Part shown: positions 2,512 through 16,614 of the stretch, in pieces
Layout: every line of letters begins with the position of its first letter
How positions within the stretch are numbered: the first letter of the stretch is position 1
UHGV virus genome: UHGV-0126919
Source: a virus
DNA length: 18,578 bases
Direction: 5' to 3' (one strand)
The notes under the pieces: generated by a model
What the model was told of the DNA's origin: nothing
The model's input: the letters and a program-made list of their open reading frames with translations, nothing else
Database searches by the model: none
Made by a program: the position numbers and the translations under genes

Positions 2512-3033
2512 TTATAAACCTAAATCATCACGAACAGTTTTTAATATATCTTCGCCATCAAAGATACAAATAAAGTTCAACTTATCAATTTCTAAGACTT
2601 CTTTCCCATCAATAAATAATTTGATATAGAGAACTTCGAATTCATTTTCTGAATCAGTGGCCTTTGCTACCTGTAGCGAACCTAAATCCAGTTTTTTAGG
2701 GTTTAGCTTCATTGAAGCCCGAATAGGAACCGTTTTATATTTTCCTGTTCCTGCATCATAAACCTGCTGGCTACCGCGAAAATCTACCTGATGCGATGAG
2801 GATAGAAATAATTTTGTACCAGCAGAGGTCAGAGTTCGCCATTTAAGAGAGACAGTCATTGGTTTGAAATGCCCCAGCGTTCCGCTCTCAAGCTCTCCAG
2901 CGATACCTGCACCACTAACAGTTTCTGTCATCATCTCAATTGATGGCAGCTTTGCGTCAGCAACACCGATAATACGGTTTCCTTCACCGTATACTGTAAA
3001 GTTAATAAGTCTCTCAGGAATTTGATTGCTCAA
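2512..3033 (-). CDS. tail tube protein
   Basis: 173-aa ORF directly downstream of the sheath gene, the conserved sheath-tube-chaperone-tape measure order of contractile tails; size typical of tube proteins. Confidence 0.7.
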   Translation of the reverse strand: MSNQIPERLINFTVYGEGNRIIGVADAKLPSIEMMTETVSGAGIAGELESGTLGHFKPMTVSLKWRTLTSAGTKLFLSSSHQVDFRGSQQVYDAGTGKYKTVPIRASMKLNPKKLDLGSLQVAKATDSENEFEVLYIKLFIDGKEVLEIDKLNFICIFDGEDILKTVRDDLGL

Positions 3034-3049
3034 AGCAACCTCCTATTAT

Positions 3050-4513
3050 TTATTCAGAAAACAAGTTCAGCAGATAATCAGGATTATATTCCATGACGAA
3101 CTCTATATCTCTGGCAGGTGAGAATGGTGTCATTTTCACATGGAATTTAACAATCCCGTCCATCAATGACGTAATCGTGTTTTCAGACTGATCAAAGGTA
3201 ACAACACCACCTGCAATATCCTGATTACCAGTGAGGCCGTTAAGCCAAATATTCGCACTAGTAACAATCGATTCAATTAATCGACGGTTTGCAGGATTGT
3301 CTATTTTTGACCAATGCGAAAGAATTAACGTATTACCCACCCAGTTAAACATACGTCGGCAAACACGAAATGCGTCTTTGGGGTCTGTAGATGTTGGATA
3401 AATAGCATTACGGTTTCCCCATGATTTCCAACCATCAAAATTAAGGCTTGTTACAATCCCCTGTCCATTTAAGTAGTTTGCCTGGCTAATGTTAAGCCAT
3501 ACCTCACTGCCATCTTTACGTACAGCACCGTCCATCTGTAGTTTTATATTTGACGGAGAACGTGATGGAATATCACCATACTGACTATCCAGCAAGCATG
3601 TTGCTGCCGCTAAATGGGTTGAGTGATGGTAAATATTGTCACCAAGTTTCACCATCGGCCAGCACACTGTCTGGTTAGCTGCCATATGATTATTGTTCTG
3701 CTTCCATTCAGGAACAGCAGAATAATCACTGATAGTAGATTTATCAGTCGGCGCATCGGTGATAGCTTCTGCTTTGAACAATTCACTAATCAGCGCAGCT
3801 TTAGCCGCCATTAGCTGGCCAACTTCACTATCAGAACTAAATCCAGGCGCAATCACTTGTCCTGGAACTAGTTTGAAGCGGGGATAAACATCCGACAGTA
3901 ACTCAAGCCCCGTATTCGCTTTAGTGTTGGAATCCACGCCACCAATAATATCGTTTTTAGTTACAGCCCCGGGATCAAGATACGTATAACTAACCTTAAG
4001 AGTGGCGTCTTTTTCAGTAACTTTTCCTCCGCTAATAGCGGTAATGACCGTATAGCCATTATCATCCAGCGCCAGTACATAATCTGTATCAACCGTTAAC
4101 CCTGGAGAATCACCATCTGCTTTTTTCACAACAACAGATTTATATAAGACACCATCGTTAGAGAGCGTACCTTTCCCGCCAGAAAGTTTTACTACCTCAT
4201 CAGTTACGTCTTTCTTATGCTTTGCTGGATCAAGCACATTGATAAATACAACTGGCGCAACACCATATATTCCAAATGCGACTTTAATTACTTCGCTTAA
4301 AGTATATTTCTCGAAGTTTGTGCTATATCCTATTTTAGATACGGCCTCTGCGTATGTATAAGCAATGATAGGTTTATTTACCGCTGAGGCTGGATCTTCT
4401 AACTGATTAACAGGAGCTGTACCAAATGCGACAATCAACCCAGCACTAACTTGTACTGGAGGAGTTATAGATGTAGCCAGCTCAGATATATAAATACCGT
4501 GGCGATATCCCAT
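3050..4513 (-). CDS. contractile tail sheath protein
   Basis: 487-aa ORF; size and N-terminus (MGYRHGIYISE…) typical of myovirus sheath proteins; followed by the tube gene. SD GGAGA 7 nt upstream of the ATG. Confidence 0.8.
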   Translation of the reverse strand: MGYRHGIYISELATSITPPVQVSAGLIVAFGTAPVNQLEDPASAVNKPIIAYTYAEAVSKIGYSTNFEKYTLSEVIKVAFGIYGVAPVVFINVLDPAKHKKDVTDEVVKLSGGKGTLSNDGVLYKSVVVKKADGDSPGLTVDTDYVLALDDNGYTVITAISGGKVTEKDATLKVSYTYLDPGAVTKNDIIGGVDSNTKANTGLELLSDVYPRFKLVPGQVIAPGFSSDSEVGQLMAAKAALISELFKAEAITDAPTDKSTISDYSAVPEWKQNNNHMAANQTVCWPMVKLGDNIYHHSTHLAAATCLLDSQYGDIPSRSPSNIKLQMDGAVRKDGSEVWLNISQANYLNGQGIVTSLNFDGWKSWGNRNAIYPTSTDPKDAFRVCRRMFNWVGNTLILSHWSKIDNPANRRLIESIVTSANIWLNGLTGNQDIAGGVVTFDQSENTITSLMDGIVKFHVKMTPFSPARDIEFVMEYNPDYLLNLFSE

Positions 4514-5630: not shown

Positions 5631-6022
5631 TACTTCTTATTACCTTTTTTTTGCGTTGATTTTTTCGCATTACTGGTATCAGAAGTAGCTACAGATTCAG
5701 ATGAATCATCAGCAACCATTTCCTCATTGCCGCCATCATCCTCAAACTCAACCTCGAATACACAGCTACCCGCCTCCGTTCGCGTAATCAACCCCGCGTC
5801 CACAGCATCATTAACAGCAGATGCGTATCCATGCTCAAAAGCTAACTTAGCAGCATCATAGCCCCCAGCCGATGCCAAATCACCATCCTCTTCGGTGGCA
5901 ATAGCATGTCCTGACGCAATCAGTTCGGCAATTCTGGAGTTATCCATTAGCCCATTAAGCAAACGGCCCGCTTTTAGCGAGCCGTGGCTTATCGTATCAA
6001 TGTTTTTAATCAGTCTGGCCAT
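5630..6022 (-). CDS. hypothetical head-module protein (130 aa, acidic, Lys-rich C-terminal tail)
   Basis: Track ORF directly downstream of the major capsid gene, at the position of lambda FI-type accessory proteins; no convincing sequence match. One-nucleotide stop/start overlap with the FII-like gene. Confidence 0.45.
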   Translation of the reverse strand: MARLIKNIDTISHGSLKAGRLLNGLMDNSRIAELIASGHAIATEEDGDLASAGGYDAAKLAFEHGYASAVNDAVDAGLITRTEAGSCVFEVEFEDDGGNEEMVADDSSESVATSDTSNAKKSTQKKGNKK

Positions 6023-7066
6023 TTAAACCACCTTAGCCACCAGATAGGCATCAGCCACACCAGGATTAGGCAGTGGAGATGACTTCATGGCAACATAACG
6101 GCCAGCCGGCTTACGAGTTACCCAGGTGTCTGGAACTCGTGGTGACTCAACAATCGTTAGAGTCTTTTCGGCGTCATCTACAAGCTCTACAGCACCATAC
6201 AGCATCGTTCCTCGACCAGGAGAGCCAAAGAGGATCTTATCTTCCGGTACTAATGGTTCAGGTTTTCCTGTTTTATCATTGCGAATAAGTTCGTCGTAAC
6301 CATAAAAATCGACACCTTCAAGATTGCCATAATGAGTTACGCCTTCTTCTAACTCTTTAGGCTCAATATACCCAAGCTCTTTTCGGCGATTATCAAGATA
6401 TTTAGTTACTGCTTCATTTTTAACGAAGGCATCAACAACTTTTGCGCCCATTACGGCAACACGAGGTGTAAAACCTGAAGTTAGTGATACCCGACGTTTC
6501 CAGTTGCGAACATTGACTAACGGATCTGATTTTGCTGCACTCCATAAATCATCACCTGTCAGTTCAAGATATGGTTTATCTCCTTCCTCTTCAGGCCAAA
6601 AATAAACTGTGTCATCCACTCCTTCACCAACAATATCAACCTGCCCCGTAAACAAGACTTGTGCACACATCCATTCTTCACGGCGGTTAACCATTTCATC
6701 AAGCTCAAGCAAATCTTTACCTAATTGCTCGGCGGCTCGTTCTGCTGGCGATTTTGCGTTGTAAATATTCTCACCCGGAAGCCTGTTTAAAAGCAGCTCG
6801 GCTGTTGTTACCAAATCAGGTGCAACAAGTGGTGGCTCCAGAGTTCTCGTTACAAAGCCGCGTCGCTCAACGGTTTTTGAGCCAAAACCTTTACCAACAA
6901 ACGGAGCCATAGTACGGCCACCGCGAACAAAATCCAGATCAACTTTCTTTGTATTAAAGGTCTGAACACCAGGAAAAAAGGTACGAAGAAGAAAACGACG
7001 AGCCTTGAAATTCTGAATAACAGGCTCAAGCATCGTACGTCGTTCAAAAATATCAATATTCGGCAT
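6023..7066 (-). CDS. major capsid protein (lambda gpE-like)
   Basis: 347 aa (lambda E is 341 aa). C-terminal region (…SPRVPDTWVTRKPAGRYVAMKSSPLP…) resembles lambda gpE (…ARYPKNWVTTGDPAREFTMIQSAPLM…). Follows protease and decoration-like genes. Confidence 0.85.
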   Translation of the reverse strand: MPNIDIFERRTMLEPVIQNFKARRFLLRTFFPGVQTFNTKKVDLDFVRGGRTMAPFVGKGFGSKTVERRGFVTRTLEPPLVAPDLVTTAELLLNRLPGENIYNAKSPAERAAEQLGKDLLELDEMVNRREEWMCAQVLFTGQVDIVGEGVDDTVYFWPEEEGDKPYLELTGDDLWSAAKSDPLVNVRNWKRRVSLTSGFTPRVAVMGAKVVDAFVKNEAVTKYLDNRRKELGYIEPKELEEGVTHYGNLEGVDFYGYDELIRNDKTGKPEPLVPEDKILFGSPGRGTMLYGAVELVDDAEKTLTIVESPRVPDTWVTRKPAGRYVAMKSSPLPNPGVADAYLVAKVV

Positions 7067-10358: not shown

Positions 10359-11780
10359 CTATATGGTTACGCCTTTACTTATAACTCTACGGCGTCTTCT
10401 ACGTATACCTGACGAGTTCTGCACATACACATTACCTCGCATTTCCTGTTCGGCAAGCCAGTTAAAATTAGGGTTCAGAATTTCCATCGCGGCAGTTGCA
10501 TAGTTACGGCAATCAAGAGGCTCGTTACGCTCGTAGACTTTCACCCACTTTTCTTTTGTCTGCCCATTTTTATATTCAAATATTTTTTTCTCTGATAATA
10601 ATCCTTTAAAGTATTCGGTATCATATCCTCTGTCAGAATCTAATGGGAAATGCATATAACCAGGACCAGGATCATGTAGTTTAATTCTTGCCATGATGGT
10701 CCCTTTACCATCATCAACCCCCAAATTAAACAACATAGCACCCACACGGTTATTATTACTTGGCTTTCCTATAAATGGTAAACCTACCCCACCACGCCCC
10801 CTGATAGAGTATATTCGCCTTGATTCTCTCGGCTTAGTAAAGCGATATACCTCTGTCGTAAAATGCCCACCAGAGTCAATACAAACGGAAGAAATCTGTA
10901 ATTTTCGACCGTCACGGAATGACCAGCTACGGAGTAAGTATTCATCAAGTTGTTTCCAGACAACATCTTGTGCGGGATCACCTGGGAATATTTTATATTC
11001 TATCCCCCATGACTCCTTACCTTTTCCCCAACCGACCAATTCACAAACTAAATACGTGTCCTGTACGTCAACACCAGCACTTAACAATAAAACATCATCT
11101 GGTAAAAACTCTTCAAACCTTATTCTGCGTTGCAACAAGTATTCAGGATCGATATCGTCTTTAGCATCCTCTTTCCATGGCTCACCCAGCTTAAGGTTAA
11201 TAAACTCCATTAATCCATTTTTATCGCGGTTTCTGGTTGCTTCCGTAAATTCTTCAACCAGCTCTGACAATGCAACCCACGGGGAGTAAAGACTGTTAAT
11301 ATGAAAACCAACAATACCTTTAACTCCAGTATGTTCAGCTATCCATACCCCCTTCGCCAACCAATCAACGTCTGGTTTACCAGATCCGCGCATAATCCCG
11401 CCGCACTCACAGCACTCATATCTGGCCGTTTCCGGTAACGCCTCACCTGAATCGCTCTTATCCCATCTGACTTGCGACCATTTCATCACCTGCATGGTGC
11501 CACAACATGGGCAAGGAACATGGTAGTAACGCTGATCGGAGAGCTTAAACCACTTGTGGATTTTGCTTGTTTCCTCCAAAACAGGAGTAGAAACAAAAAC
11601 TTTCTTACGATTATGAAAGTTGGTAGTACGCTGAATACCTAGTTTTAGTGGGTCGCCCTCCTGCGTCACACCGTAACGATCAATCTCATCAGCTAACAGT
11701 ATTCGAATTGGCCTGGATGCAAGACCTGCTGGGGAATTAGCACCAACAAGTGCTATATATCCACCAGCGTAATGCTTCAT
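10359..11780 (-). CDS. terminase large subunit (lambda gpA-like), C-terminal segment (473 aa)
   Basis: MKHYAGGYIALVGANSPAG… aligns with lambda gpA from about residue 137 (TMKRFTNGRGFWCLGG…) and continues through the …FHINSLYSPW… region (lambda …FHIWTAYSPF…). Its ATG overlaps the TGA of the N-terminal segment (ATGA). Confidence 0.85.
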   Translation of the reverse strand: MKHYAGGYIALVGANSPAGLASRPIRILLADEIDRYGVTQEGDPLKLGIQRTTNFHNRKKVFVSTPVLEETSKIHKWFKLSDQRYYHVPCPCCGTMQVMKWSQVRWDKSDSGEALPETARYECCECGGIMRGSGKPDVDWLAKGVWIAEHTGVKGIVGFHINSLYSPWVALSELVEEFTEATRNRDKNGLMEFINLKLGEPWKEDAKDDIDPEYLLQRRIRFEEFLPDDVLLLSAGVDVQDTYLVCELVGWGKGKESWGIEYKIFPGDPAQDVVWKQLDEYLLRSWSFRDGRKLQISSVCIDSGGHFTTEVYRFTKPRESRRIYSIRGRGGVGLPFIGKPSNNNRVGAMLFNLGVDDGKGTIMARIKLHDPGPGYMHFPLDSDRGYDTEYFKGLLSEKKIFEYKNGQTKEKWVKVYERNEPLDCRNYATAAMEILNPNFNWLAEQEMRGNVYVQNSSGIRRRRRRVISKGVTI

Positions 11781-12178
11781 ACGTATAGTCCTTCATGCAG
11801 CTTGTGTTTCAAACCAGGGGAATATTTGAACGTCGGATCAATACGCTCTTTTGAAAAAGCCTCAGCCGCCTCTACCGTTGGATAAATCATCAACTGAGGA
11901 GATGGCTCCTGATCTGCAAAGTAACCCATAACATTTAGCTGTAATTCGGATTTACCAATTTGCGAGCTACATTGCATCACTACTGTTTCTGTATCAGCGT
12001 CACCAATAACATCCATTGGTTCACGCAAATATGGCACTCGGCTTGTACGCCACGGCCCTGGCTCTGGAGACGTTCCCGGCGCTACATGACGATACTTATC
12101 AGCCCATTCGGAAACAGTTAGCCGTGATTTAGGGCGAAGCGCACGGAAAAAAGCGGTGCTCCATACTGTTTCGCCCAT
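11777..12178 (-). CDS. terminase large subunit (lambda gpA-like), N-terminal segment (133 aa)
   Basis: …TVSEWADKYRHVAPGTSPEPGPWRTSRVPYLREPMDVIG…VVMQCSSQIGKSELQLNVMGYFA… parallels the lambda gpA N-terminus (…TAVEWADANYYLP…VNVVKSARVGYSKMLLGVYAYFI…) including the P-loop-like segment. It ends where the homology continues in the -1 frame, so one gene is split by a frame break. Confidence 0.8.
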   Translation of the reverse strand: MGETVWSTAFFRALRPKSRLTVSEWADKYRHVAPGTSPEPGPWRTSRVPYLREPMDVIGDADTETVVMQCSSQIGKSELQLNVMGYFADQEPSPQLMIYPTVEAAEAFSKERIDPTFKYSPGLKHKLHEGLYV

Positions 12179-12183
12179 GAGGT

Positions 12184-12735
12184 TTATTCTTCCTGCTTAA
12201 TAAATCGGGATTCCTGGAGCGCCTGAAGCGCAAAATTAATCTCGTCTTCAATAATGCGCTCGATCTCCCTGGCTGTTTTGCCTTCACAACGGGGAGCTGC
12301 TCTTGGAGCAATACTAAATAAGCGGCTACGCAATTCATTAGCTGCCAGAAATGCATCATCCCTGACCGCATCTTTAGCGATGAGAGAGCCTTCCTTTTCT
12401 TCAAATTCAAGGCGTTTCAGCTTTGCCTGATAAATTTTTTCTGCGGTCTTAGCCTTGTTGAATTGCACCGCAACACCGGAAGTACCACCAGCTAATCCGG
12501 CATCATCAGCGGGTAACTCTGGTTGTTCCGAAGATATCCCATGCCCTCTTTTTCCATTTTCAGCAGATACCTCACGACCAACCTGTCGGCTCGCTTCATA
12601 AGCCGCACTGGCTTTATCAAAATCCAGCTTGCCGCTTTTCAGCACTGGAATGCGACCGGAACGACAGAGCTTCGTAACCATTGCCGGAGAAATACCTTTC
12701 CGGCGGGCAAACTCTGACTTACTGACGATGGCCAT
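12184..12735 (-). CDS. terminase small subunit (Nu1-like, HTH)
   Basis: N-terminus …SKSEFARRKGISPAMVTKLCRSGRIPVLKSGKLDFDKASAAYEA… resembles lambda Nu1 (…NKKQLADIFGASIRTIQNWQEQGMPVLRGGGKGNEVLYDSAAVIKWY…). Directly upstream of the large terminase. Likely start is ATG at 12735 overlapping the ParB-like TAA (TAATG); the track's TTG at 12744 is an alternative. Confidence 0.7.
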   Translation of the reverse strand: MAIVSKSEFARRKGISPAMVTKLCRSGRIPVLKSGKLDFDKASAAYEASRQVGREVSAENGKRGHGISSEQPELPADDAGLAGGTSGVAVQFNKAKTAEKIYQAKLKRLEFEEKEGSLIAKDAVRDDAFLAANELRSRLFSIAPRAAPRCEGKTAREIERIIEDEINFALQALQESRFIKQEE

Positions 12736-13325
12736 TACTTGCAACCATTAGCAAGATACTGAACAAATCCCTCATGCGTTTCATGCGCGTCGTGGTACTG
12801 ACGATAAACATCCAGCAACAATGCAATTTCCATATCCGTCGCGGGAATACGTTCTTTATCAATAGCCAGGTACTTAATTTGAACAACAGGGGAAGAATTA
12901 TCGTCTTCTTCCTGCGGCTGTTCATCGCTTAACATTTCGTCAAGCTCTGCATCATTAAACCCAAGCAGATCAATATCAAAATCATCATCCATTAACTCTT
13001 TGACTTCTTCGGCCAGAAGCTGCATATCCCAGCCAGCATTTAAGGCCAGCTTGTTATCTGCAATCCTGTAAGCCTTCTTCTGTTTTTCAGAAAGGTTACT
13101 CAACCGAATCGCCGGAACTTTATCCATTTCCAGAATTTCGGCTGCTGCAAGCCGCCCATGCCCCGCAATCAGTTCATTCTTTTCATCGATCAGCACAGGA
13201 TTAGTGAAACCGAACTCACGGATACTGTTCACCAACTGTTCAACTTGCTCATCTGAATGAGTCCGTGAATTTTTGGCATATCTGAGCAACTTACCGACTG
13301 GTAAATATTCGATTTTTAGAGCCAT
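12735..13325 (-). CDS. ParB-like N-terminal (ParB/Srx) domain protein, paralog A
   Basis: 196 aa; …NSRTHSDEQVEQLVNSIREFGFTNPVLIDEKNELIAGHGRLAAA…QKKAYRIADNKLALNAGWD… has the ParB-N style G-H-x-R box. Roughly half its residues match paralog B (15991..16614) by eye. Translationally coupled to the small terminase. Confidence 0.7.
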   Translation of the reverse strand: MALKIEYLPVGKLLRYAKNSRTHSDEQVEQLVNSIREFGFTNPVLIDEKNELIAGHGRLAAAEILEMDKVPAIRLSNLSEKQKKAYRIADNKLALNAGWDMQLLAEEVKELMDDDFDIDLLGFNDAELDEMLSDEQPQEEDDNSSPVVQIKYLAIDKERIPATDMEIALLLDVYRQYHDAHETHEGFVQYLANGCK

Positions 13326-13881
13326 TTTTTAACCGCCATAACACAACAGGTTAAAGAAAACTGTTTAACTTATTGATACTAAAAGAGAAAAATGACGATC
13401 TTTTTACTCATAAAAAATCACACAAACCAGCATAATTATCTGATTTTATTAAGTTTTTATAAGTAAAAAGGATCTTGCGATGGTGTTTTGGTTAAAAGAT
13501 TGGATGTATTTGCATGATTTATAACGATTTTTATCAGAACAACATCACATTGGTTAAAGATCTGCGCGTATCTTGATGATCTAAAAGAAAATTTTCCACT
13601 TTCTTCTTACCAGCACAAATACAGAAAAAATCACGTTTTCCCGATATTTTTCAATGAGATGAGTAAATTTCTTTTACCGCAACTTTTAACCTAACTTTTT
13701 TCACGTTTAGCTAGCCGAATATCGGGGTTCGAATGACCCGCATCCAACGCTTTTGGCCAGAAGGACCCAATTCTGCCGGACGATGAAACGATGCTCGTGC
13801 TCCCCCACAGACAGCCAGCGAGCGACGCTACAGAACACAGTGAATACACTCTGCATAACAACACCATCAACCACACGATGA
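13326..13881. other. 556-bp noncoding region (AT-rich left part, GC-rich right part) upstream of the packaging module; candidate cos/pac or regulatory region
   Basis: No convincing ORF. Direct repeat TTGGTTAAA(A)GAT at 13488-13500 and 13550-13561. Four GATC sites at 13397, 13471, 13559, 13578. GC-rich segment 13700-13860 with small hairpins. Confidence 0.5.
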
Positions 13882-14601
13882 TTAACGAGAGAAGGTCTTA
13901 GAAAGAATGTCATCAATCGCCTTTGTGACTTCATCAGCAAACGCATCCTCACCAGCACGCAGCGCCACGCCATGCCAATCAAGACGCTGCGAATAGTTAG
14001 GTTGCTGGATAAACGTAAGGATCAACGTAGGACGCCGCCCAACGCGCTGCCAGACGCCTGGTTGAAGCGGGTTACTTGTACCAGGTCGAACAACAAAAAA
14101 CTCCGTAGGCTTGCCCTGACGGCGATTTTGATGCGCATCTCGCTGAACTCTTAGGCCAGATAAGACCTGCTGTAATTGCCCCCGCGAAATATTCCCGTAT
14201 TTGTCCAGCTTTGCGCCGGGACCAGGAGCAAGCTGCCAGCCGTTAGGCAAATATCCACCAGCCCTTAGCGCCCCTTCTGAGCGTTTGTACTGTCGTTGGC
14301 CACCTTCGATTTGCGGAGTCAACGTTACAGGGGCTGGCGTTCCTCCCCATTCACGAGCATACACAATGGCTGTAGGATCACTCTTCTTTGCGGCCAAAAC
14401 GTAAGTAGAGTTCTGAATCCACGGCGTGGGCCTGTCAAATACCCGATTAATTTCATTCTTAATCGCAGCCTGAGAAGCCTTTGCCGTTCTGGTTGCCGCA
14501 AGCGCCATTGCGAACGGCAATTCGCGTTCTTCAAGGCGCTGGAGTTGTCGTTGAATATCCTGAGAAGAAAAATCCATCTTTATCTCAATTCTGTCAGCCA
14601 C
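13882..14601 (-). CDS. hypothetical basic protein (239 aa), no family recognised
   Basis: GTG start at 14601 preceded by a strong SD (TAGGAGG, 5-nt spacer), 16 nt downstream of the methyltransferase stop. Arg-rich throughout. Last gene of the ParB-B / methyltransferase unit before the noncoding region. Confidence 0.6.
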   Translation of the reverse strand: MADRIEIKMDFSSQDIQRQLQRLEERELPFAMALAATRTAKASQAAIKNEINRVFDRPTPWIQNSTYVLAAKKSDPTAIVYAREWGGTPAPVTLTPQIEGGQRQYKRSEGALRAGGYLPNGWQLAPGPGAKLDKYGNISRGQLQQVLSGLRVQRDAHQNRRQGKPTEFFVVRPGTSNPLQPGVWQRVGRRPTLILTFIQQPNYSQRLDWHGVALRAGEDAFADEVTKAIDDILSKTFSR

Positions 14602-14617
14602 CAGCGCCTCCTACACA

Positions 14618-15991
14618 CTACTTAATCAACGGCCGGAAAGCCGCCAGCACATCATCAGATCGTCCGATTGTTGAACCACCAGGCAACGGCAACTCAAACT
14701 CAAAACGAACAGCTTTCTCCAGACTCGCCCAACTAAGGGAATCATCGTTAATAACGTGCAAATACCAGCTCTTACAGTTGAATATTGACCGCTTAATCCT
14801 GAAACCATGTACACGACACAACTGCTTCACTTCATCATCAGAGTGAAACTTCTGGTAAAACCAGTGCCCCTTCCGGTACAACGCGGTAAAACCGTTATGA
14901 TCAATAAAATAAAGCCGGCTTTTGGAACTCGCAGCTTGTGTTTGCTTCAGGACTGTTTCCAGCTCTCCACGGCTACGGCCAGAAAAGAATATTGACCCAC
15001 CAGCTTTACACAAGCCTTTCAGAACCGTCAGAACGGACCATTCAGCCTCGACACTATCGACCGAGTTCAAAACGCTATCGCAAATCACGTAGTCGTAACG
15101 CCCTCGCGTTTTTAAGTCGTCCACCAGCGTATCAATCATCCGGTTTGTTGCGGTCCTATCCAGAGTGTTTCCAGCGCCCTTACGGCGGAAAAGCTCGAGA
15201 TCATGCAGGTTATATCCCTTTGCCCTGAGCATTCGCGCGTAGTCTCCCTGCCCCGAACCAAAATCAATTCCTCTTGGCGTCTTGGCAATGATCGGGAGGA
15301 TCAACGACTCATACAGGTTTGATTTCAGGCTGCCACCATTACGCAACCGCATAAGCTGCGCATACGTCTGGATGTATGTTGTTTTCTCCAGATGAGAATA
15401 CTCAAATACACCATAAGTTTTATTCAGATAACTTTGGTATTTTTCCTTCTCAACATCAGGGATCACAAACACCGTTAGCGGTGTGCGCGTCATTTTCGCT
15501 GCTAATGCATACTGAGCACAGTGAATAACCTCACCAGACTGAGTAGCAACACAACCACCCCACGGACCATACTTGATAACCAGTTCCGCTATGTTCTTTC
15601 GAACATATGCCATTTTCGCGCGCATATTGCCTGAGATCTGGCTTGCCGATACCTGAACAAAACCATGCTTATCTTCCAGACCGGACACCCTGCAACGCTC
15701 ATCTCCGCTATCAAAATCCGTTCCGTTATGCAGTTGGTTAAACCGTACTTCGTCGTATACCGTCGTTTCACAGGGCAACACATACACCGCAGCACGCGTT
15801 ATTCCCAACTTACGTAGCGCCTTCGTCCTTTGGTGTCCCGCCACCAGCAAATCGCCGCGCACTATCAATGGCTTCACAAGCCCCAGCTCCCTGACGCTTT
15901 CCGCCAGCCTCGCAAGATCATCCTCACCGATAAAACGCGGGTTATATTCCGCGCCGCGTAGGTGCGTTATGTCGTAATTGAGGTGAAGCAT
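14618..15991 (-). CDS. ParB-like N-terminal domain fused to a class I SAM-dependent methyltransferase domain
   Basis: N-terminus …YNPRFIGEDDLARLAESVRELGLVKPLIVRGDLLVAGHQRTKAL… is ParB-N-like. C-terminal half has Rossmann methyltransferase motifs in class I order: motif I GIDFGSGQGDY, acidic post-I (…YNLHDLELF), motif II YDYVICDSVL, motif III LCKAGGSIFFS. No (D/N/S)PP(Y/F/W) motif seen by eye. Likely start is ATG at 15991 (TGATG overlap with the ParB-B stop, SD GGAGG 7 nt upstream); the track uses GTG at 15997. Confidence 0.75.
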   Translation of the reverse strand: MLHLNYDITHLRGAEYNPRFIGEDDLARLAESVRELGLVKPLIVRGDLLVAGHQRTKALRKLGITRAAVYVLPCETTVYDEVRFNQLHNGTDFDSGDERCRVSGLEDKHGFVQVSASQISGNMRAKMAYVRKNIAELVIKYGPWGGCVATQSGEVIHCAQYALAAKMTRTPLTVFVIPDVEKEKYQSYLNKTYGVFEYSHLEKTTYIQTYAQLMRLRNGGSLKSNLYESLILPIIAKTPRGIDFGSGQGDYARMLRAKGYNLHDLELFRRKGAGNTLDRTATNRMIDTLVDDLKTRGRYDYVICDSVLNSVDSVEAEWSVLTVLKGLCKAGGSIFFSGRSRGELETVLKQTQAASSKSRLYFIDHNGFTALYRKGHWFYQKFHSDDEVKQLCRVHGFRIKRSIFNCKSWYLHVINDDSLSWASLEKAVRFEFELPLPGGSTIGRSDDVLAAFRPLIK

Positions 15992-16614
15992 CAGCACACC
16001 TCCCCAGCCAGCAATGCGGATACAAATCCGATATAGCTGCCATTATCATCAACATAACGAGACACCGCGCAGTCAAAACGATCCGCTTCCTCATCCGTTG
16101 CCGGGATTTTATGACCTCCAAATGACAGGTACTGAACTTTTACGCCTGATTTGGCCTCATCCTTCTCAAATGGGATATCCATACCCTCTGTGTCATCGTA
16201 GACCGCCGCACTCAATAAGTTATCCAGTTCGCGCTGAGTAAAACCAATTGAGTCCAGAGAAAAATCATCGGCCGCAAGATCTGCAAGCTCCGCGCTTAAC
16301 AACTCTTCATCCCAACCAGCATTCAGCGGAATACGGTTGTCGGCCAGACGATATGCCTTCTTCTGATTCTCCGTTAGCCCAGCCAGAACAATGCAGGGAA
16401 CATCATCCATCCCCAACTGAGTGGCCGCAGCAATTCGACCATGACCAGCAATTACAACGTTGTTCTCGTCTATCAGGATCGGATTAGTCCATCCGTACTC
16501 CTGTATGCTGGCAACAATCTGATCTACCTGCTCCACGGAGTGTGTGCGAGCGTTCTTTTCATAACCAATCAACACAGAAAGTGGTAAAGAAACCACATTA
16601 AGTTGTTTTGTCAT
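15991..16614 (-). CDS. ParB-like N-terminal (ParB/Srx) domain protein, paralog B
   Basis: 207 aa; …NARTHSVEQVDQIVASIQEYGWTNPILIDENNVVIAGHGRIAAA…QKKAYRLADNRIPLNAGWD… is clearly paralogous to 12735..13325. Translationally coupled to the methyltransferase fusion. Confidence 0.7.
   Translation of the reverse strand: MTKQLNVVSLPLSVLIGYEKNARTHSVEQVDQIVASIQEYGWTNPILIDENNVVIAGHGRIAAATQLGMDDVPCIVLAGLTENQKKAYRLADNRIPLNAGWDEELLSAELADLAADDFSLDSIGFTQRELDNLLSAAVYDDTEGMDIPFEKDEAKSGVKVQYLSFGGHKIPATDEEADRFDCAVSRYVDDNGSYIGFVSALLAGEVC

Follow-up and report, generated by a model that had tools for sequence, protein, structure and literature searches.

What is the function of the 556-bp gap (13326-13881) that separates a 239-aa ORF from the genes for a ParB-like protein, the small terminase subunit (TerS) and the large one (TerL) in the 18,578-nucleotide stretch of DNA analyzed here, hereafter the window? 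A preliminary description of this DNA had read the gap as a noncoding region upstream of the packaging genes, and this was borne out: no ORF of at least 25 aa exists in 13326-13690, and the only ORFs that overlap 13691-13982 are four unconserved ones of 36-91 aa (the stop-free stretches that span the conserved block in several frames are uninformative). None of the records that we inspected annotates any feature in the gap, and RefSeq annotation within it was likewise absent from 72 E. coli genomes. We conclude that the gap is very probably the cos site of a ~48-kb E. coli phage-plasmid, a divergent homologue of lambda cosQ-cosN-cosB. This reading rests on sequence homology and spacing, on conservation, on the terminase family and on where the virion DNA or the records of relatives end. 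The site is biologically ordinary; it is useful for annotation and leaves current understanding in place.

The window, whose genes lie on the minus strand, is part of a larger element. The region was matched in 72 E. coli genomes, and in 71 of them the matching DNA belonged to a 47-50-kb plasmid with repA and parA, which identifies the ~48-kb element as a phage-plasmid; the ATCC 25922 plasmid (NZ_CP009073.1, region at 37250-37806) is one example. The Yersinia phages vB_YpM_41, 39 and 44 (OR545053-5), whose records are labeled circular, are 97-98% identical over the region, and these phages and the E. coli plasmids are essentially the same element as that of the window (96-99.8% identity over the region, gene order kept). 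Next to the site, the element encodes a large terminase of the lambda GpA family, as expected of a lambda-type cos, and its portal belongs to the lambda family. This terminase gene is frameshifted in the window: compared with the intact ATCC 25922 gene (alignment A2), a 37-bp deletion at ~11790 splits it into two ORFs (11777-12178 and 10359-11780; GpA_ATPase, E=4e-28 and 1e-41; GpA_nuclease, E=6e-85), whereas the Yersinia phages and the E. coli plasmids have an intact 1857-nt terL. The cos site of the window may therefore be unusable in cis at present. No named phage-plasmid group for the ~48-kb element was found in the literature; pSLy3 was considered and rejected, as it belongs to the ~100-kb SSU5 supergroup. 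The coordinates of all features are collected in the table.

Table. Features of the gap and of the adjoining packaging genes (window coordinates; A1, alignment of 11 sequences).
Feature	Position	Strand	Basis
TerL, lambda GpA family	10359-12178	-	Pfam GpA_ATPase and GpA_nuclease
TerS, 186 aa, N-terminal excisionase-like HTH	12184-12744	-	phrog_57 'terminase small subunit', E=7e-42
ParB/Srx N-domain protein, 196 aa, first gene after cos	12735-13325	-	Pfam ParB_N, phrog_620
Candidate cosB, AT-rich (24-33% G+C)	13328-13691		five GGTTAAA copies
GGTTAAA copies	13328-13334, 13349-13355, 13490-13496, 13552-13558, 13685-13691	-, +, +, +, -	word match
Second IHF consensus match, TATCAATAAGTTA	13366-13378		consensus match
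GATC sites	13397-13581		three of four are the 3' end of GGTWAAA(A)G(G)ATC
Imperfect inverted repeat, 31-nt arms (13400-13430 and 13440-13470)	13400-13470		opposite-strand self-match, 77% complementary
IHF consensus match, AATCAGATAATTA (WATCARNNNNTTR)	13433-13445	-	consensus match
GGTAAAA variant	13672-13678	-	within candidate cosB
R3-equivalent, AAAAGTTAGGTTAAAAGT	13682-13699	-	17/18 positions invariant in A1
Spacer from cosN to first repeat, CGGCTAGCTAAACG	13704-13717	-	12/14 invariant in A1; positional equivalent of lambda I2
cosN block, AGCGTTGGATGCG/GGTCATTCGAAC/CCCG, predicted nicking region	13723-13751	-	28/29 positions invariant in A1
Predicted 5' cohesive end, GGTCATTCGAAC, 11-12 nt	13727-13738	-	homologous record ends in relatives
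cosQ-like element, TTGGGTCCTTCTGG	13757-13770	-	13/14 positions invariant in 11 relatives
Variable spacer	13771-13881	-	between the stop codon of the 239-aa ORF and cosQ

The functional core of the gap is a near-invariant block at 13723-13770, and not the repeats that had been stressed earlier. On the minus strand this block reads TTGGGTCCTTCTGG-N18-/GGTCATTCGAAC/CCCG, where slashes mark the predicted nicks (top strand, 13739/13738; second nick, ~13727/13726, ±1 nt). Its two conserved elements, cosQ and cosN, stand out against surrounding intergenic DNA that is ~69% identical in 11 relatives. In the heptamer GGGTCCT (13762-13768, minus strand), the first G precedes the predicted top-strand nick by exactly 30 nt; lambda, N15 and the Vibrio phages R20L and X29 have GGGTCCT at an identical -30 offset. 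In lambda, this heptamer (bp 48473-48479) is reportedly cosQ (Wieczorek & Feiss 2001). In two IMG/VR contigs (L120 and L137), the complete 14-mer of the window precedes the exact cohesive end of lambda, GGGCGGCGACCT. In the literature, cosQ is a highly conserved element of 7 bp and CG dinucleotides flank both nick positions in lambda-like phages (PMC4669245). The left nick flank of the window, GCG/GG, fits the CG rule; the rule failed at the right flank (AAC/CCCG with a 12-nt overhang), where the alphaproteobacterial contig L060 does have /CG.

All evidence on the ends comes from relatives and from the terminations of database records and contigs. The records of the three Yersinia phages start exactly at window position 13738 (...GGATGCG/GGTCATTCGAAC). 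A second set of relatives is provided by the Vibrio myophages X29, phi 2, vB_VpaM_XM1, R20L, R19R and PVP-XSN, the proposed 'Weiviridae' (PMC11432961), whose ParB-like and TerS proteins are 59-62% and ~41% identical to those of the window. Their junction reads ...GGAGCG/GGTGCTCGCGAC/CCCG: the R20L, PVP-XSN and XM1 records start at its first G, the X29 and R19R records are broken 11 and 10 nt after this G, and the right end of XM1 falls 10-12 nt beyond it, XM1 carrying an 11-12-nt segment at both ends. The breaks at one junction and the repeated XM1 segment are as expected from two nicks with a filled-in 5' overhang. For X29, the ends are physical and defined, with experimental support from drop-offs in read coverage (PMC5690320).

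The record ends of relatives fall within the cosN block, and their breaks at two positions imply an 11-12-nt 5' cohesive end at 13727-13738. We infer nicking in the window element itself, as well as the polarity and exact length of its overhang: a 5' polarity would follow from the duplicated XM1 segment and from the terminase family, and the length is uncertain, with records breaking at 10, 11 and 12 nt. The N15 record annotates a 12-base 5' extension. Metagenomes also contain such ends: among 120 IMG/VR stretches with the 14-mer, all retrieved with the window's own copy of it, four contigs of 10-35 kb (L077, L131, L143 and L164) end 40-43 nt after the start of the 14-mer, where lambda geometry predicts an end at 44 nt. 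Two other contigs, L045 and L052, start at positions homologous to each other, 75-93 nt ahead of their ParB gene. No description of cos was found in the literature for the Yersinia or Vibrio relatives or for the E. coli plasmids, nor a paper stating how the Yersinia phage records were oriented. Altogether, homologous virion ends and the lambda-type cosQ/cosN geometry strongly support a cos packaging site upstream of the ParB-like, TerS and TerL genes. The preliminary description was right in naming a packaging site as one option for this gap, but the predicted nicking site and cosQ are in the right-hand part and not in the repeats that it had emphasized.

Comparison with well-described sites shows what has been kept and what has changed. 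With lambda, N15 and other lambda-like phages, the window shares the GpA-family terminase, the GGGTCCT spacing, the CG immediately before the top-strand nick and a 5' overhang predicted at ~12 nt. Further resemblances are the TTCG.CTA motif after cosN, a candidate first TerS-type repeat that begins ~48 bp beyond the nick, an IHF consensus with repeat copies of opposite orientation on either side, and a position ahead of the packaging genes as read on the gene strand. In contrast, its cohesive end matches that of lambda at only 3 of 12 bases, and the site is therefore a divergent relative, outside the narrow 'lambda-like phages' of Feiss et al. The right-hand flank is CC instead of the lambda-like CG, and the repeat word GGTWAAAAG is unrelated to the lambda R sites. 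The first gene, which is the ParB-like gene and not terS, starts 413 bp from cosN (190 bp in lambda and ~150 bp in the Vibrio phages), and the tail of the virion is predicted to be contractile from the tail sheath and tube genes.

The Vibrio myophages have the same succession of genome end, ParB-like, TerS, GpA-type TerL, adaptor and lambda-type portal genes; in X29, R20L, XM1 and PVP-XSN, the genome end is followed first by the ParB-like homologue. Their junction, TTGGGTCCT...GCG/GGT.....CGAC/CCCG..TTCG.CTAGCTA, is homologous to that of the window, including the TTCG.CTAGCTA of the spacer (lambda has TTTCGCTA in the same place), and repeats also lie between the end and the ParB-like gene. They differ in their cohesive end and in the repeat word, GTTAACA, present in five closely spaced copies; also, they are not known as plasmid prophages, and X29 carries integrase genes. 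The GGGTCCT element with its 30-nt spacing persists well outside the classical lambdoid phages: it is found in Vibrio myophages as well as in L060, a metagenome-assembled contig, while cohesive-end and cosB sequences diverge.

The AT-rich tract between the core and the ParB-like gene (13326-13700) looks like a cosB by its sequence. The direct repeat pointed out previously is present (TTGGTTAAAAGAT at 13488-13500 and TTGGTTAAAGAT at 13550-13561, 62 bp apart); it is part of a five-copy GGTTAAA family, which is plausibly cosB and whose copies are predicted, by analogy, to be TerS binding sites. Five of the six GGTTAAA copies of the whole 18.6-kb window, counting both strands, fall in 13328-13691, against 0.09 expected from local composition. 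Since any 7-mer reached five copies in 4.4% of shuffles, this enrichment is modestly significant, and conservation in relatives adds support. The most over-represented 7-mer of the interval in each related lineage is a variant of GGTTAAA (GGTAAAA, 5-6 copies in contigs L013, L021 and L024; GTTAACA, 5-6 copies in Vibrio R20L), and the copies are found at conserved positions in enterobacterial relatives. The GGTTAAA copy nearest cosN lies at bp 48-54 from the nick, and the first GTTAACA of the Vibrio phages at bp 50-56. Beyond this R3-like copy, the repeats are only partly conserved between subgroups and, given the 413 bp that separate cosN from the first gene, most copies are far from cosN. The arms of the inverted repeat carry GTAAAAAG(G)ATC and surround the first IHF consensus, whose specified positions (AATCAG....TTA) are invariant in 11/11 A1 sequences while the 4-nt spacer varies. 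This arrangement of site, IHF site and inverted site parallels the R3-I1-R2 layout described for lambda (PMC4669245).

A lambda-type cycle would account for these features. During lytic growth, TerS would bind to the AT-rich tract (13328-13699) at its GGTWAAA(A)G repeats, probably assisted by host IHF, which would bend the DNA at 13433-13445, and bound TerS would place the GpA-type TerL, the presumed cosN nuclease, on cosN. TerL would then introduce staggered nicks at the two predicted positions, ~12 nt apart, to generate the 5' cohesive ends GGTCATTCGAAC. Packaging would begin at the cosB side, with the ParB-like gene first and then terS, terL, the head and the tail genes, and stop at the next cos, where GGGTCCT would be needed for the terminating cut. 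After injection, annealing of the ends would restore the circular plasmid. TerS is the presumed reader of cosB; its residues 5-39 match phrog_575 'Cox-like excisionase'. Among solved structures, no sequence relative of TerS was detectable, so its link to the repeats is by analogy.

The distal part of the tract could have another role. With cosQ and cosN as proposed, the AT-rich 270 bp at ~13326-13600, where the IHF site and the inverted repeat lie together with the GATC-bearing words, could be a late-gene control region, or be read by the ParB-like protein, and not be a cosB read by TerS; we regard this as possible, although rather unlikely. The stretch is extra relative to the Vibrio phages and lies directly upstream of the first packaging gene, the ParB-like gene always follows cos in this module, and published work shows phage ParB-like proteins acting, when bound to DNA, as partners of other enzymes (PMC13229309). 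Yet, the same word is present at the R3-equivalent position beside cosN, which argues for one reader of all copies, and the 196-aa protein contains only a ParB N-domain, with no recognizable HTH. In addition, a consensus scan revealed neither sigma-70 promoters nor intrinsic terminators; the late-transcription control region that the preliminary description offered as an option for the gap is unsupported, though conceivable, in the extra ~270 bp.

The four Dam-type GATC sites previously singled out are indeed present within 185 bp (13397, 13471, 13559 and 13578), but their clustering is statistically unremarkable and mostly a by-product of the repeat motif. The window contains 52 GATC, and random placement gives a cluster of four in 185 bp somewhere 44% of the time (P=0.44); against local composition, P is ~0.015, uncorrected. 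The site at 13471 is invariant and the one at 13397 is found in 9/11 relatives, while those at 13559 and 13578 are lineage-specific. In P1, a phage-plasmid, the pac packaging site contains clustered GATC-bearing repeats and an IHF site; packaging from pac is by headful, with the PacA/PacB terminase, and Dam methylation of the hexamer repeats gates cleavage. In the window, the terminase and site are of the lambda cos type and the GATC cluster is not significant. Because three of the four GATC sites belong to the repeat word, a comparable gating can be imagined here: the ParB/Srx-domain protein would be an accessory packaging factor that reads GGTWAAAAG(G)ATC, adenine methylation controlling its binding and the use of cos. 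We consider this improbable; if true, it would make cos a site with a methylation- or ParB-dependent switch that leaves the resident plasmid uncut until lytic growth.

Low G+C content (24-33%), repeated words, four GATC sites and flanking genes with ParB_N domains could also be expected of a replication origin or a parS-like partition site of a plasmid prophage, in which case the tract would not be a packaging element. This is highly unlikely. On the ATCC 25922 plasmid, repA (13069-14049) and the ParA gene (21388-22041) adjoin other noncoding DNA at a distance of 16-24 kb, and thus the site is not adjacent to initiator or partition genes. The flanking proteins match just the ParB N-terminal domain, the GATC cluster lacks significance, and the repeat-bearing interval is shared by the non-plasmid Vibrio phages that have physical ends here. 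An iteron search near repA on the ATCC 25922 plasmid returned just weak two-copy repeats, so the case against an origin is one of gene position.

The right-hand ~180 bp of the gap had been described as GC-rich with small hairpins. Its G+C content is indeed higher than that of the tract (50-56% in 13700-13881), but this merely equals the coding average, and on both strands it folds no more stably than shuffled sequences (z = -0.69 and -0.72). The length of the gap and some predicted hairpins would fit a structured leader or small regulatory RNA, above all in this part; such an RNA is nonetheless most improbable: Rfam 15 gave no match in the whole window at the gathering score, nor in 13250-13950 at E<=1, and the scan found no promoter-like or terminator-like sites. 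Moreover, 13771-13881 is unconserved, being unalignable between subgroups of relatives with differing indels, the sequence upstream of cosQ in relatives is non-homologous, and the conserved block is invariant, without compensatory change. Equally implausible is that the conserved block is an attachment-site or tRNA-like remnant and that database records start there arbitrarily: the plus strand does contain a T-loop-like GGTTCGAAT (13726-13734) and the Yersinia records are labeled circular, but ARAGORN finds no tRNA and a remnant at GGTTCGAAT was rejected, several phage records that were deposited separately are each broken at one or the other of the same two positions, X29 has physical ends, cosQ identity and its 30-nt spacing equal those of lambda and N15, metagenomic contigs end at the site, and the element is maintained as a plasmid.

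Reading the gap as a cos site assigns a packaging site, probable virion ends and a packaging direction to the ~48-kb phage-plasmids. This group is widespread and little described; its hosts include clinical and reference strains of E. coli, among them ATCC 25922, and it has been recovered as Yersinia pestis phages. For cosmid-like vectors or transduction assays with such elements, the reading identifies the ~450 bp to be cloned. Also, the ends of metagenomic contigs can serve to map cos sites.

The 556-bp intergenic gap at 13326-13881 is predicted from sequence to contain the lambda-type cos site of a phage-plasmid, the probable ends of which are placed by the records of its relatives. Matches to the gap and the DNA on either side of it, at 96-99.8% identity, occur in 72 complete E. 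coli genomes, 71 of them on 47-50-kb plasmids, and RefSeq annotation of the gap is absent in all 72. In one example, the 48,488-bp plasmid of E. coli ATCC 25922, genes for a P2-like tail, a lambda-like head and lysis are combined with repA, ParA and toxin-antitoxin genes, showing that the element is a phage-plasmid; Yersinia pestis phages vB_YpM_39, 41 and 44 are isolates of the same element. No named phage-plasmid group could be assigned to it; pSLy3, suspected at first, belongs to the ~100-kb SSU5 supergroup and was rejected. All long ORFs of the window lie on the minus strand, on which gene order is read below.

Features around the predicted cos site, in minus-strand order
Feature	Coordinates	Strand	Remark
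ParB_N protein	15991-16614	-	ParB/Srx N-domain paralogue
ParB_N + methyltransferase fusion	14618-15997	-	Methyltransf_23 domain
239-aa ORF	13882-14601	-	PHROG 1924 'minor tail protein', E=2.5e-97; no Pfam family
Gap	13326-13881		between 239-aa ORF and ParB_N protein 12735-13325
TTGGGTCCTTCTGG	13770-13757	-	13/14 positions invariant
AGCGTTGGATGCGGGTCATTCGAACCCCG	13751-13723	-	28/29 positions invariant
CGGCTAGCTAAACG	13717-13704	-	next after the two blocks
AAAAGTTAGGTTAAAAGT	13699-13682	-	after CGGCTAGCTAAACG
ParB_N protein	12735-13325	-	directly after gap
Small terminase	12184-12744	-	phrog_57, E=7e-42
Large terminase, GpA family	10359-12178	-	
DUF6148 protein		-	after large terminase
Lambda-family portal		-	after DUF6148 protein

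Relatives were gathered through the ParB-like protein, and the intergenic DNA of 11 elements (ParB 76-100% identical) was aligned. Outside the window's own group, DNA identity is only ~69% and homology begins at window 13770; from there to the preceding stop codon (110 bp, 13771-13881), subgroups cannot be aligned with one another. Two near-invariant blocks, TTGGGTCCTTCTGG and AGCGTTGGATGCGGGTCATTCGAACCCCG, occur inside the aligned DNA. The preliminary description, which had named a packaging site first, then a late-transcription control region or a small RNA, was right in its leading idea, although the active core lies elsewhere in the interval than it suggested.

Three Yersinia phage records start exactly at window 13738, and their end ...GCGTTGGATGCG joins the start GGTCATTCGAACCCCG... 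with no base lost. In several Vibrio myophages, identified by protein search, the ParB-like gene is the first gene, ~150 nt from the record start, and the record ends are homologous to window sequence. R20L, PVP-XSN and XM1 begin with GGTGCTCGCGACCCCG... following ...GGAGCG; the break is 11 nt further on in X29 (...GGTGCTCGCGA/CCCCGG..., slashes marking breaks or nicks throughout) and 10 nt further in R19R, these two records having been linearised at the other nick. Record breaks therefore cluster at two positions separated by 10-12 nt, and the segment is doubled in one record, as expected of a cos with a filled-in 5' overhang, which may here be 11 or 12 nt long. The doubled record is that of XM1 (PP580404.1; compared as L069, left end, and L070, right end): GGTGCTCGCGAC is present at both ends, on the right as GGTGCTCGCGAC(A) with a trailing A, so that the deposited length is ~12-13 nt too long. 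For X29, drop-offs in read coverage show that the record ends are physical ends (PMC5690320). Termini are not discussed in the XM1 paper, and no publication describing the Yersinia phages was found.

In the work of Feiss and colleagues (PMC4669245, PMC4856287, PMC9026076), cos comprises cosQ, cosN and cosB: cosQ is a highly conserved 7-bp element needed for termination, the nicks are flanked by CG dinucleotides, there is an I2 spacer, and cosB combines R3 with an IHF site (I1) and with R2 in the opposite orientation. Aligned at the first nick, lambda reads ACGGGTCCTTTCCGG-N15-ACG/GGGCGGCGACCT/CGCGGGTTTTCGCTA, phage N15 ACGGGTCCTTTCCGG...TTACG/GGGCGGCGTCCG/CGC, the window TTGGGTCCTTCTGG-N15-GCG/GGTCATTCGAAC/CCCGATATTCGGCTA and R20L TTGGGTCCTTCTGG...GAGCG/GGTGCTCGCGAC/CCCGCGTTTCGTCTA. 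In all four, GGGTCCT begins 30 nt upstream of the nick, and the first 12 bases of the N15 record are annotated as a single-stranded 5' extension. We take lambda cosQ to be exactly GGGTCCT (bp 48473-48479), the position that Wieczorek and Feiss reportedly gave it in 2001; consistent with this, GGGTCCTT is the only block upstream of cosN common to lambda, N15 and metagenome contig L120. The window departs from lambda-like phages in that CG is missing from its right nick flank, and its cohesive end has only 3/12 identities with that of lambda, so its cos is not 'lambda-like' in Feiss's narrow sense. The site is precisely placed and of a kind already well known; a specialist would find it unsurprising, and its value lies in annotation and in illustrating the reach of the conservation of lambda cosQ and its spacing.

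An IMG/VR scan with the window's 14-mer returned 120 stretches, many of them chance matches in coding DNA. True lambda-type sites are present in two contigs, L120 (12098-12190) and L137, which carry the exact 14-mer TTGGGTCCTTCTGG followed by ...CTTACG/GGGCGGCGACCT/CGCAGG, in which GGGCGGCGACCT is lambda's own cohesive end; this pairing shows that lambda-type sites differ in how they combine cosQ variants with cohesive-end sequences, the two being shuffled. Seven others (L085, L099, L100, L121, L146, L157, L167) have the 14-mer, N15-18, then CG/GG-N10-/C. Genuine contig ends lie 40-43 nt after the 14-mer start in L077, L131, L143 and L164 (10-35 kb), against 44 nt predicted from lambda geometry if the 12-nt end is filled in; by our rough estimate, assuming ~25-kb contigs, ~0.01-0.02 such ends are expected by chance among 120 matches. 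The L164 end, GGTTATTCGAAT, is close in sequence to the window's GGTCATTCGAAC. Among distant ParB-linked loci, contigs L045 (6.8 kb) and L052 (39.5 kb) have mutually homologous starts, 75-93 nt before the gene, and in the alphaproteobacterial contig L060 (TTGGGTCCCTTCCGG-N15-GCG/GGGTCGCTGCCG/CGCG) the spacing is again 30 nt. With ends and starts at such cosQ-linked or homologous positions, the contigs of public viromes offer an experiment-free way of mapping cos sites.

The candidate cosB lies in the AT-rich part of the gap. GGTTAAA occurs five times (both strands) in 13328-13691 and six times in the whole window, against an expectation of 0.09; 4.4% of shuffles contain five copies of any 7-mer. 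The direct repeat described earlier (13488-13500 and 13550-13561, 62 bp apart) is real but belongs to this larger family. Counting the nick at 13738 as bp 1, GGTTAAA is found at bp 48 and 405 (forward) and 181, 243 and 384 (reverse), and GGTAAAA at bp 61. In the L013, L021 and L024 lineages, GGTAAAA is the top over-represented 7-mer of the interval, its 5-6 copies matching those of the window in position (48, 62, 130, 183, ~319-333 and 385); GTTAACA takes this place in Vibrio R20L, with five close-set sites starting at bp 50. One word thus recurs in each lineage as a multi-copy variant peculiar to that lineage, the first copy ~48-50 bp from the nick, the region where R3 is located in lambda; distal copies are only partially conserved between subgroups. 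An IHF consensus (AATCAGATAATTA, 13445-13433), with specified positions invariant in 11/11 relatives and a variable 4-nt spacer, is centred in an imperfect 31-nt inverted repeat (13400-13430/13440-13470) whose arms bear GTAAAAAG(G)ATC, an arrangement that resembles lambda R3-I1-R2.

The four GATC sites (13397, 13471, 13559, 13578) are where they had been reported, but a Dam-type cluster is unremarkable: when the window's 52 sites are placed at random, 44% of trials give four within 185 bp at some point (P ~0.015, uncorrected, against local composition). Three of the four close the extended word GGTWAAA(A)G(G)ATC on its 3' side, making the cluster largely a by-product of the repeat; one of these three is invariant in relatives and another present in 9/11.

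Near its N-terminus the small terminase carries an excisionase-like HTH (phrog_575, residues 5-39), the domain type expected to read such repeats; its assignment as reader rests on analogy, as no solved structure was found among its sequence relatives. The ParB-like protein might instead read some of them, a proposal to be taken seriously since phage ParB-like proteins acted as DNA-bound activators of partner enzymes in a recent study (PMC13229309). The extra ~270 bp relative to Vibrio phages might also hold a late control element. A replication origin or partition site is unlikely: repA and ParA are 16-24 kb distant in the ATCC 25922 plasmid, the ParB/Noc N-terminal domain is all that is recognised in the ParB-like proteins on either side, and the same interval with its repeats is present at the physical end of Vibrio phages that are not plasmids.

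The gap was correctly described as noncoding, with no ORF of at least 25 aa in 13326-13690 and only four short ORFs overlapping its right-hand part. G+C is 24-33% in 13326-13700 and 50-56% in 13700-13881, so the right part called GC-rich merely equals the coding average. The small RNA proposed for the gap found no support in Rfam, a promoter/terminator scan or folding against shuffles, and ARAGORN, together with the end evidence, rules out a tRNA or att remnant. The window's plus strand at 13726-13734 reads GGTTCGAAT, identical to the tRNA T-loop consensus; because ARAGORN finds no tRNA, this match in the cohesive-end region appears coincidental.

Compared with the ATCC 25922 plasmid, terL lacks 37 bp (GAAAAGAGGGGCGCGGTGCAGCCAAAAAGTCCAGCAC) at ~11790, inside the GpA ATPase domain, and the resulting frame shift splits it into ORFs of 133 aa (11777-12178) and 473 aa (10359-11780); the sequence is intact in all of the best 12 of the 72 E. 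coli records. Either this copy is defective in packaging or the assembly is in error; if real, the deletion would preclude self-packaging, the intact cos being usable only with terminase in trans.

The PHROG label of the 239-aa ORF, the gene just upstream of cos, may be unreliable, as it is distant from the tail gene cluster. The three ParB/Srx N-domain paralogues surround cos; a linear virion map would have two of them on its right and the third as the leftmost gene. In one relative, L028, the two paralogues (3001-3600, 6263-6436) lie ~3.2 kb from each other and enclose the cos block (match 5818-6239), which confirms that the paralogue-cos-paralogue layout is kept beyond the window's own lineage.
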